A model generated the notes under the pieces. The model was not told where the DNA came from and searched no databases. It worked only from the letters and a program-made list of their open reading frames with translations. A DNA stretch of 63,243 nucleotides, the filler included, from Reclinomonas americana ATCC 50394 (Eukaryota): the NCBI GenBank assembly GCA_048213135.1. It is 12 parts of 12 records of this genome, joined end to end, with 100 filler letters (N's around TTAATTAATTAA, not from the genome) between each part and the next. Parts side by side here need not be neighbours in the genome. Positions count along the whole stretch, not along the records: positions 26,799 to 29,979 come from AFZH01017224.1; positions 30,080 to 53,543 come from AFZH01017225.1; 10 more parts are not named here. One strand, 5' to 3'. Below are positions 28,076 through 31,000 of this stretch, in pieces; the first letter of the stretch is position 1, and every line of letters begins with the position of its first letter. The position numbers and the translations under genes were made by a program.

Positions 28076-31000
28076 ATGGCGGAGAGCGCGGGCACTCGAC
28101 GACCTCGCGAGGAGGAGATGGAGGAGGACGAGACCGGCGCCTCAGGCAGCGGCTGTTGCGTGCCACACGAACGTCGATACACACACACACGTGTACACTC
28201 ACACACACACACGTGCAGCAAACGGCCACGGCGAGTCAGTCGACGAACCACAGCACAAGCGCAGCAAGAAGCCAATTCGCGCCTGGTCAGACGGAGTGTA
28301 CGACCTGATGGTGCGCGTGCGTGCCATGTCGTCATCTCCGCTCACGTGTCACTCACTGTCTCTCTCTCTCACACACAGCATGTTGCGCGACATTATGTGC
28401 CTCTCTGCCTCTCACTCACCCTTCTCACTCTCTTTCTTTGTAGTATGGTCATGCCAATGCACTGCGACAGGCCAAGATGTTGTGCGATGTGAGTGTGGTG
28501 GGTGTGTCGACTGATGAGGAGGTGTATCGTGCGAAGGGAGTGTTGCCGGTGATGAACACGGAGGAGCGGTGAGTGTGAGACTCGACGGAAAGGCAGCGAA
28601 GATGCATTGTGGAATATTCTCGATGTATTGTCGGGGCGATCTCAGCTGTCTTCACTTATTGTCTCTTCTCTGTCTCCTCTCTGTCTCGGACCTTTGCAGC
28701 TTCTCTCACTCTCCATGCATCTGTTGTCCGTGCATCTCGGGCCTCTGCAGCTTCTGTCACTCTCCTTGCATCTGTATCTCTTCTCTCTGTCTCTCTCGGG
28801 ACTTCTCACATTCTCCATGCATCTGTATCTCTCTTCTCTCTTGTCTCTCACTCAGCAGTGCGATTGCTGATTCGAATCTCTGTCTCTCTTTCTCTGCCTC
28901 TCAGACTCTGCAGCTTGATGTGCTCCTCGTTGCATCGGTTTCTGTTTCTTTCTCTCTCTGTCTCTCTTTTCTCCCTCTCACTTTCCTTGCATCAGCATCT
29001 CTCTTTCTCACACTCTTGTTGTCTTCGGGCAGGGCGTTCAATAGCTCGAATTTTCATCGCTCTGCCGCTTATCGCTCTGCTCATCTGTCTCTCGGGTCTT
29101 TGCAGCTTCTCTCACTCTCCTTGCATCTGTGTCTTTCTCTAATGTCTCGCATTCGTTGTGACCTTAGGAAGGGCGATTATTGACTTGATTCTGCAGCTTG
29201 CCTTGCTCCTCTCTCGCTCTCTCGTGTCTCGCAATCTTGTCAACCATATCAGAGCGTTCACTGACTCGAACCTCTGCAGCTTCTTGTCTCCGGCATTGCT
29301 CTGTCACCCTGCTTGCTTCAGTCTCTCCCCCGTGCAGAGCGCTTCCTTGTTCTCGCTCTCTTTCACCGCATCGGTCTCTCTCGCGTCTCTCTGTCTCGTA
29401 TCTCCGCACTCACCCTCCGCCGCACTCCGCAGCATAGTACTGTCGTTCTCCTCTCCTTGTCTCTCATTCTGCCTGTTCACGTTCTCCTTCCCTTTCTTCT
29501 TCCCCCTCACTCCCCCTCTCCCAGTTACACCGCCGTCGAAGGCTGCAAGTGGGTGGACGAGATGGTCAAGGACGTTCCCTACGCCCCCGATATGCGGATG
29601 ATTGACGAGCTGAACATTGACTTTATCGTGCACGGCGAGGATGTTGCCGTGGATCAGGACGGCAATGACGTGTATGCCGCGGCCAAGGCGCAGGGTCGAT
29701 TCAAGTTGCGCCTGATCTCTTGTTTGGGGGGCGATGGGTGAATGCTAATCTGTGGTGAACAGGATCATCAAGCGCACGGAAGGTGTGAGCACGACAGATC
29801 TGGTCGGACGCATGCTGCTGATGACCAAGGAGCACCATACTGATCGCGATATTGACGAGTCGAAGATTCACGAGCTGAGCACGGTGCGTTAAGGGAGAAG
29901 AGAGAGGGAGAGGGGGGAGGAGAAGAGCGAAGAGAGACAGAGACAGTGTCCCACTTTCCATGTCTCTCTCTCTCTCTCTNNNNNNNNNNNNNNNNNNNNN
30001 NNNNNNNNNNNNNNNNNNNNNNNTTAATTAATTAANNNNNNNNNNNNNNNNNNNNNNNNNNNNNNNNNNNNNNNNNNNNGAGGTAGTACGAGAGAGGAGG
30101 AGGAGGAGAGAGACGAAGAGACGACGAGACTAGTACCTACCTACGTCTCTCTCTCTCTCTCTCTCTCTCTCTCTCTCTCTCTCTCTCTCTCTCTCTCTCT
30201 CTCTCTCTCTCTCTGCCTTGTGTTTTCTCTCGCTCTATTTCTCTCTCTTCCCTCCCCCTCCCTCCCTTCCCTCTCTCCCTCTCCCTCCCTTCCTCTCCCA
30301 TCTCCCTCTGCTCATCTCCTTTTCCATTTTCACAGGGCCCCTCCAACCTCGACCCCAAGACCAACGTCAAGTTCCTCACCACCAGCCGCAAGATCATCCA
30401 ATTCAGCAGCAACCGCGTGCCGAAGGACACCGACGTCATTGGCTACACCGACGGCAGCTTTGACTTGTTCCGTTGCGTGCCTTGCTGTGCACATAAAATT
30501 AGATGGAGTTGCCGTGCTCACTACACATCCAGACGCCGGCCACATTTCGTTCCTGAAAAAGTGCCGCGCCCAATGCGACTTTTTGATTGTCGGCGTGCAC
30601 AGCGACGACGTTGCGCAGTCTGCGATGGGTGCCCGCTCATTCCATCACACCGCGCTCATTTCGTGCGTGTGCAGGTGGTCAACAAGCACCGCGGCAGCAA
30701 CTACCCGATCATGAATGTGCACGAGCGTGTGCTCAGTGTGCTGGCCTGCAAGGTGAGGAGTGACTGCTCTCACCTTGTGCGCTCACGTTCTGAACGTGCC
30801 CGCGCAGTACGTCGACGAAGTCATCATTGGTTCGCCATACGTGCTCTCGGAGGAGATGATCACATCGCTGAATATCGCCAAGGTGTTCCAGGGCTCTGTG
30901 ATTGAGGCGCCGATTCCTGGCCTGAGCCCGTACGCTGTTGAGTGAGAAGCGGAGATTTTGTTGCCAGCTGCTGAGTAATTAGGGAACTGATCTGGGGGCG

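Follow-up and report, generated by a model that had tools for sequence, protein, structure and literature searches.

The DNA analysed here is a stretch of 63,243 nt (the window), joined from 12 parts of the draft genome of Reclinomonas americana ATCC 50394 (GCA_048213135.1); it is eukaryotic draft DNA of about 56% G+C with 11 joints, each of which consists of 44 N, TTAATTAATTAA and a further 44 N. Within it, a gene for a homologue of CTP:phosphoethanolamine cytidylyltransferase (ECT/PCYT2) occupies positions 28076–31682 on the + strand, and the element of interest is a CAT triplet of this gene that is proposed to form an internal exon of three bases and to supply the first histidine of the N-terminal HxGH motif of the enzyme. 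The gene model was built from reading frames and from comparison with homologues, exon 1 and the start codon being placed by frame logic alone; it comprises 12 exons with 1,197 coding nt (398 codons) and no internal stop (Table 1). Upstream of exon 2, its reading frame stays open without offering a Met; the frame is restored with the ATG at 28076, the donor GTTGCGTG at 28155 and an intron of 64 nt.

As shown in Table 1, exons 4 and 5 carry the clearest matches to known proteins. Exon 4 matches human ethanolamine-phosphate cytidylyltransferase (PDB 3elb) from residue 21, and the second domain of 3elb is matched more weakly. When exon 5 was used as a query against a library of 1.84 billion proteins, 977 proteins were retrieved at E ≤ 0.001, and most of the best 150 of these matched in two stretches, one per domain, in line with a two-domain enzyme. 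A PDB search with the 22 C-terminal residues of exon 2 gave no match, the query being too short. In addition, the model is colinear with an ECT on the metagenome contigs L001 and L002 over residues 43–377 (45% identity, E 4e-90), the alignment being ungapped at the microexon histidine; both contigs (each at 4824–5885) carry the same intronless two-domain enzyme, about 45% identical to the model, in which HYGH and HMGH are uninterrupted. Two other metagenome loci, L003 and L004, were considered as relatives and rejected as chance-level short matches.

RTEG(I/V)ST(S/T) has been reported as a signature motif (PMC6060094). The model contains RTEGVSTT and KWVDE, and its two cytidylyltransferase domains lie in tandem in one chain of about 400 residues; the C-terminal HxGH motif is HAGH, formed across a 61-nt intron by a splice predicted from homology, and its histidine is found in 88 of 105 homologues. 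Because the model is open and colinear with its homologues and includes RTEGVSTT, KWVDE and the second HxGH, the host gene is, as judged from these features, an intact ECT/PCYT2 homologue, and CDP-ethanolamine synthesis is its predicted activity. The initial annotation had likewise named the gene PCYT2, an identity that is borne out by the match of exon 4 to 3elb, by Pfam PF01467 on exon 5 and by the two-domain colinearity.

Table 1. Exons and introns of the predicted ECT/PCYT2 gene, in positions of the window.
Feature	Position	Strand	Description
Exon 1 (predicted)	28076..28154	+	79 nt; ATG start; ends in codon phase 1; N-terminal tail without homology support
Intron 1	28155..28218	+	64 nt; GTTGCG...GTGCAG; CTCAC 17 nt from 3′ end
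Exon 2	28219..28310	+	aligns to the D-G-x-x-D-x-x portion of the family motif
Intron 2	28311..28378	+	68 nt; GTGCGC...ACACAG; upstream of the microexon; CTCAC 23 nt from 3′ end; pyrimidine fraction 0.80 at -22..-3
Proposed microexon (CAT)	28379..28381	+	3 nt; putative His58, first His of HYGH in the N-terminal cytidylyltransferase domain
Intron 3	28382..28443	+	62 nt; GTTGCG...TTGTAG; downstream of the microexon; CTCAC 16, 25 and 29 nt from 3′ end; pyrimidine fraction 0.90 at -22..-3
Exon 4	28444..28568	+	ends ...TEER; matches PDB 3elb residues 21-61, E 5.8e-09
Intron 4	28569..29524	+	956 nt; GTGAGT...CCCAG; contains degenerate ~51-nt repeats
Exon 5	29525..29704	+	ends ...GRFK; Pfam CTP_transf_like (PF01467), E 9.5e-05; KWVDE
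Intron before exon 6	29705..29762	+	58 nt; GTTGCG donor
Exon 6	29763..29883	+	RTEGVSTT signature
Intron before exon 7	29884..30335	+	contains the joint at 29980-30079
Exon 7	30336..30471	+	linker and start of C-terminal domain; ends ...DGSFDLF + C
Intron 7	30472..30532	+	61 nt; GTTGCGTGCC...ATCCAG; splits the His codon of C-terminal HAGH (C/AC)
Exon 8	30533..30609	+	
Exon 9	30675..30752	+	
Exon 10	30808..30936	+	
Exon 11	31008..31105	+	
Exon 12	31604..31682	+	closed by TGA stop

The CAT triplet and its proposed splice sites

On the + strand, the exon upstream of the triplet reads ...TGG TCA GAC GGA GTG TAC GAC CTG ATG, its last base being 28310, and the downstream exon opens with TAT GGT CAT GCC AAT at 28444. 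The first histidine of the N-terminal motif is absent from both of these exons, and HYGH exists only with CAT spliced in. All GT, GC and AT donors were combined with all AG and AC acceptors in the interval 28285–28470, with a lower limit of 20 nt for each intron, an upper limit of 30 nt for the middle exon and no stop allowed. No single-intron solution in this interval restores the motif; exactly one two-intron solution does so, namely removal of 28311–28378 and 28382–28443 with CAT between them, which is the sole canonical solution in the genomic sequence. Both introns that flank CAT possess a donor, a branch-like site, a pyrimidine tract and an acceptor (donors GTGCGC and GTTGCG; acceptors CAG and TAG, respectively). 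Both neighbouring exon borders fall between codons, so that the frame is kept if CAT is skipped.

The introns of the gene fall into a short class of 55–71 nt, with six members besides the two next to CAT (64, 58, 61, 65, 55 and 71 nt), and a long class of 452–956 nt with three members; the 68- and 62-nt introns lie within the short class, whereas a single intron of 133 nt would belong to neither. Similarly, the 11 donors of the model form two classes, GTTGNG (7/11; GTTGCG six times and GTTGAG once) and GTG[CA]G (4/11; GTGCGC, GTGCGT, GTGAGT and GTGAGG), and the donor of the microexon, GTTGCG, is the modal donor of the gene (6/11). GTTGNG donors may be a register-shifted form of G/GTG[CA]G, as described for atypical human donors. 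On the sense strand of the gene, GTTGCG is found six times, at 28155, 28382, 29705, 30472, 30610 and 31106, in every case at a predicted junction, and five of these six junctions are fixed independently by protein homology; on the antisense strand within the gene, it is found 0 times. CTNAY lies 12–27 nt from the 3′ end in all 11 introns, and CTCAC lies 16–25 nt from it in each of the two introns that flank the microexon. The initial annotation had given the exon end, the 68-nt intron, CAT, the 62-nt intron and TAT GGT CAT, and these coordinates and letters are all exact on re-reading; its statements that the flanking introns are of typical local size, that skipping is in frame, that CAT would supply the first histidine and that the microexon donor belongs to a separate class agree with the results above.

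The conservation of the histidine was assessed in an alignment of the model with the best 150 of the 977 library proteins, of which 77 include the N-terminal motif at both its Asp and its second His. His stands at the microexon column in 74 of these 77 homologues. Exactly five residues separate the motif Asp from the second His in 75 of them, the remaining two having 6 and 16, and a spacing of four residues, which corresponds to a skipped CAT, is found in 0 of the 77. The alignment gives D-G-x-x-D-x-x-H-x-G-H, in keeping with the family motif DGxxDxxHYGH put forward in the initial annotation. It has been reported that both HxGH histidines are critical for catalysis in the superfamily (PMC6060094), and that, of the two domains in human and Plasmodium ECT, it is the N-terminal one that is critical (PMC10033509, citing Maheshwari 2013 and Tian 2014).

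The frequency of a comparable arrangement was estimated from shuffled and from genuine sequence. Of 20,000 dinucleotide-shuffled versions of the 133 nt, 177 contained AG-CAY-GT with sub-introns of at least 40 nt, as did 240 of the 17,305 windows of 133 nt across the whole window; with sub-introns of at least 20 nt, the counts were 339 of 20,000 and 425 of 17,305, respectively. The heptamer AGCATGT shows no enrichment in the window (12 occurrences against 9.8 expected), and AGCAYGTTGCG, in which the local donor is attached, occurs once in 124,550 positions, at the microexon site. A chance origin of the arrangement is unlikely, though not astronomically so, and the arrangement carries its weight because CAT sits exactly where the protein requires one His codon.

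Interpretation of the triplet and alternative readings

The genomic sequence makes it probable, and in our judgement strongly so, that CAT is a real internal 3-nt exon of the ECT/PCYT2 gene which is included constitutively or near-constitutively; its presence in the mRNA is what we infer from the splice arrangement and the protein. Each flanking intron has its own full set of signals, namely donor, CTCAC, pyrimidine tract and YAG, and should thus be removable independently, being recognised and removed as a unit by intron definition. In this mechanism, the spliceosome would pair sites across the intron, as may be expected where introns are mostly about 60 nt. The first removal, of either intron, would join CAT to an exon of normal size, and the remaining splice would then be an ordinary one. 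The spliced mRNA would encode ...DLM-H-YGH..., in which the CTP-binding and catalytic HxGH of the N-terminal domain would be restored. If this is the case, a residue indispensable to the enzyme is carried by a single three-base exon, and intron-definition splicing copes with an exon too small for recognition alone. An annotation from which CAT was missing would then contain either an ECT devoid of catalytic activity or a faulty gene model, and gene prediction that allows for microexons could be tested cleanly at this locus, in a eukaryote with short introns.

Several points weigh against inclusion of the triplet. The chance of AG-CAY-GT at a usable place, 0.9–2.5%, is modest by itself; CTCAC is frequent in CT-rich sequence, which makes the branch-site argument weak; and three of the 77 homologues have Q, G or V in place of His at the microexon column, in rows that look mispredicted or misaligned. 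The closest library homologue is only 45% identical, and the metagenome relatives, about 45% identical and intronless, have no bearing on the microexon: the metagenome scan gave four loci, none informative on it, and a search for closer relatives with exon 5 among longer proteins gave 15 candidates, none of which scored. Finally, the assembly is a fragmented draft, with its 11 joints in the window.

It has also been proposed, in the initial annotation, that the triplet acts as an on/off switch. CAT would then be a regulated cassette, alternatively skipped to give an in-frame DLM-YGH protein whose N-terminal domain is unable to bind CTP, and CDP-ethanolamine synthesis would be tuned by splicing. 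The preserved frame is in keeping with such regulation, as the skipped product would evade nonsense-mediated decay, and there are precedents: the 3-nt microexon of cytohesin-1 has been reported as a functional switch (PMC6314551), and mammalian PCYT2 is reported to be alternatively spliced at exon 7 (PMC3588000). However, the splice sites of the microexon match the constitutive ones of the gene, since both the acceptor (pyrimidine fraction 0.80, CAG) and the modal GTTGCG donor are of constitutive quality, and no sign of regulated skipping is present in the sequence; the shortened spacing is that found in none of the 77 homologues, and loss of a catalytic His would leave the enzyme dead or dominant-negative, not tuned. 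The switch is thus left unsupported, and we regard regulated skipping as improbable. It is just as doubtful that a skipped isoform provides the rate-limiting step of phosphatidylethanolamine synthesis with a splicing-controlled off-state or a dominant-negative partner.

Another explanation dispenses with the microexon: one 133-nt intron would be removed, the mRNA would encode DLM-YGH, the N-terminal domain would be inactive or the gene copy decaying, and AG-CAT-GT would be a coincidence. A chance of 0.9–2.5% for the heptamer is non-negligible, and the unequal contribution of the two ECT domains described in PMC10033509 makes a degenerate domain conceivable in principle. However, the same source reports the N-terminal domain as the critical one (PMC10033509), every other signature motif of that domain is preserved, and the gene as a whole is open and colinear with its homologues. 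CAT followed by the full GTTGCG donor occurs only once in the 124,550 positions, 133 nt falls outside both intron size classes of the gene, and the deletion that would result is seen in no homologue (0/77). A single intron is, on this evidence, an unlikely account of the locus.

Very improbable indeed is a sequence or assembly error, or a histidine obtained through a non-canonical splice or editing beyond the enumeration, for although the window holds 11 joints with N runs and the enumeration was limited to GT/GC/AT..AG/AC borders, the closest joints (26699–26798 and 29980–30079) are well away from the microexon, the flanking introns are not mutual copies (46% mean column identity among eight short introns), which makes a duplication artefact unlikely, and the existence of a canonical solution makes an exotic one needless.

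Introns and surroundings of the gene

In this duplicated enzyme, introns are found at each of the two catalytic His codons. In the N-terminal domain, an intron in phase 0 would flank the codon on either side, while in the C-terminal domain, the intron at 30472–30532 is in phase 1 inside the codon (C/AC); the remaining intron positions of the two halves, as judged from the exon ends, do not correspond. An intron at the same His codon in both domains could be the mark of an old or recurrent intron site, and it could stem from an old shared intron, from sliding, or from repeated insertion at a favoured site. The short introns were also considered as mobile "introner" copies, an idea that was rejected: the alignment of eight introns shares only the donor, the branch-like site and the acceptor, with a mean column identity of 46%.

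GTTGCG, with C at +5, is an unusual major donor class beside GTG[CA]G, and GTAAGT is nearly absent from the window (3 and 4 per strand). In total, GTTGCG occurs 79 times in the window, and GTTGCGYGCC, with at most one mismatch allowed, is present 25 times where 12.8 are expected, a count of 25 being reached in 0 of 100 shuffles. Outside the gene, 11 of 73 GTTGCG sites have YAG 58–75 nt downstream such that excision would connect two open frames, each 95 codons or longer; these are candidate introns from a heuristic. A window-wide harvest of short introns by an ORF-flank heuristic (ORF, open reading frame) yielded 4,699 candidates with no usable donor signal and was dropped. A literature search for a GTTGCG/GUUGCG donor consensus, judged on titles and abstracts, gave nothing relevant among the papers listed.

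Repeats lie within the gene and next to it. Most of intron 4 is made up of degenerate CT-rich repeats of about 51 nt (CTGCAGCTTCTCTCACTCTCC.TGCATCTGT) at 28674–29304 (+), in five copies with 63–100% identity, and these may be the reason for the length of this intron compared with its neighbours of about 60 nt. Just upstream of the ECT start, at 27551–27967 (+), three to five degenerate tandem units of about 147 nt are present with 60–77% identity; a GCAGGACAATC... core is found in each unit and GTTGCGCAGG in two. Between these upstream repeats and those of the long intron, 0 inverted pairs were found. Beyond the joint at 29980–30079, the ECT gene resumes in the same order and orientation, and an extra exon may be concealed at this joint; a long (TC)n tract follows the joint at 30146–30287.

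On the - strand at 32729–32848, some 1 kb past the 3′ end of the ECT gene, lies a full-length gene for 5S ribosomal RNA (Rfam RF00001, 103 bits). Elsewhere in the window, Pfam matches on other open frames include CBS, RRM (two), anoctamin (two pieces), SET, a TPR_12/TPR_10 array in a 672-codon frame, and protein kinase; the regions of these matches are 2–982, 2130–4685 (-), 21837–24783, 39906–40658, 56781–58796 and 60370–60990.

Comparison with known systems

Exons of this size have been described in other organisms. It has been reported that a 3-nt microexon of cytohesin-1 and cytohesin-2 inserts a single Gly into the PH domain, with a switch in lipid preference (PMC6314551). The proposed ECT exon resembles it in being an internal exon of exactly three bases that adds one residue in a structured ligand-binding site and whose skipping is in frame (PMC6314551). 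However, the cytohesin exon is reported to be alternatively spliced (percent spliced in, PSI, of 45–93% in cell lines), with both isoforms functional (PMC6314551), while the residue that the proposed exon would add in ECT is a catalytic His that is near-universal in the family, so that inclusion should be obligatory. The hosts differ too, the cytohesin exon belonging to vertebrates with long introns and the ECT exon to a eukaryote with introns of about 60 nt.

In plants, thousands of microexons of 1–15 nt have been reported, which are mostly included, lie in many cases within conserved motifs and have been validated down to 1 nt; for instance, a 9-nt microexon occurs in AP2 and a 1-nt microexon in APC11 (PMC8831610). 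Like these, the proposed ECT exon is a tiny coding exon in the core of a conserved motif, and it is predictable from protein conservation together with splice signals (PMC8831610). Plant microexons are described as pervasively missed in annotation, which leads to wrong proteins (PMC8831610). The ECT exon differs from them in lineage and gene family; AP2, Glyco_hydro_32N, myosin head and others are named in the portions of that report cited here, where cytidylyltransferase is not among them (PMC8831610). A full-text literature search gave no description, among the matches listed and as judged by title and abstract, of a microexon at HxGH of a cytidylyltransferase. Because 3-nt and 1-nt exons, as well as microexons in motif cores, are already documented, the ECT exon would not represent a new kind of biology.

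The splicing reported for PCYT2 itself is of another sort, altering the inter-domain linker (exon 7) or truncating the C-terminal domain (PMC3588000), whereas the proposed microexon lies at the N-terminal HxGH. The predicted protein shares with ECT/PCYT2 (human structure 3elb) two tandem cytidylyltransferase domains, HxGH in the C-terminal domain and, provided that CAT is included, also in the N-terminal one, RTEG(I/V)ST(S/T), the KWVDE/YVDE dimer motifs and a length of about 400 residues (PMC10033509, PMC6060094).

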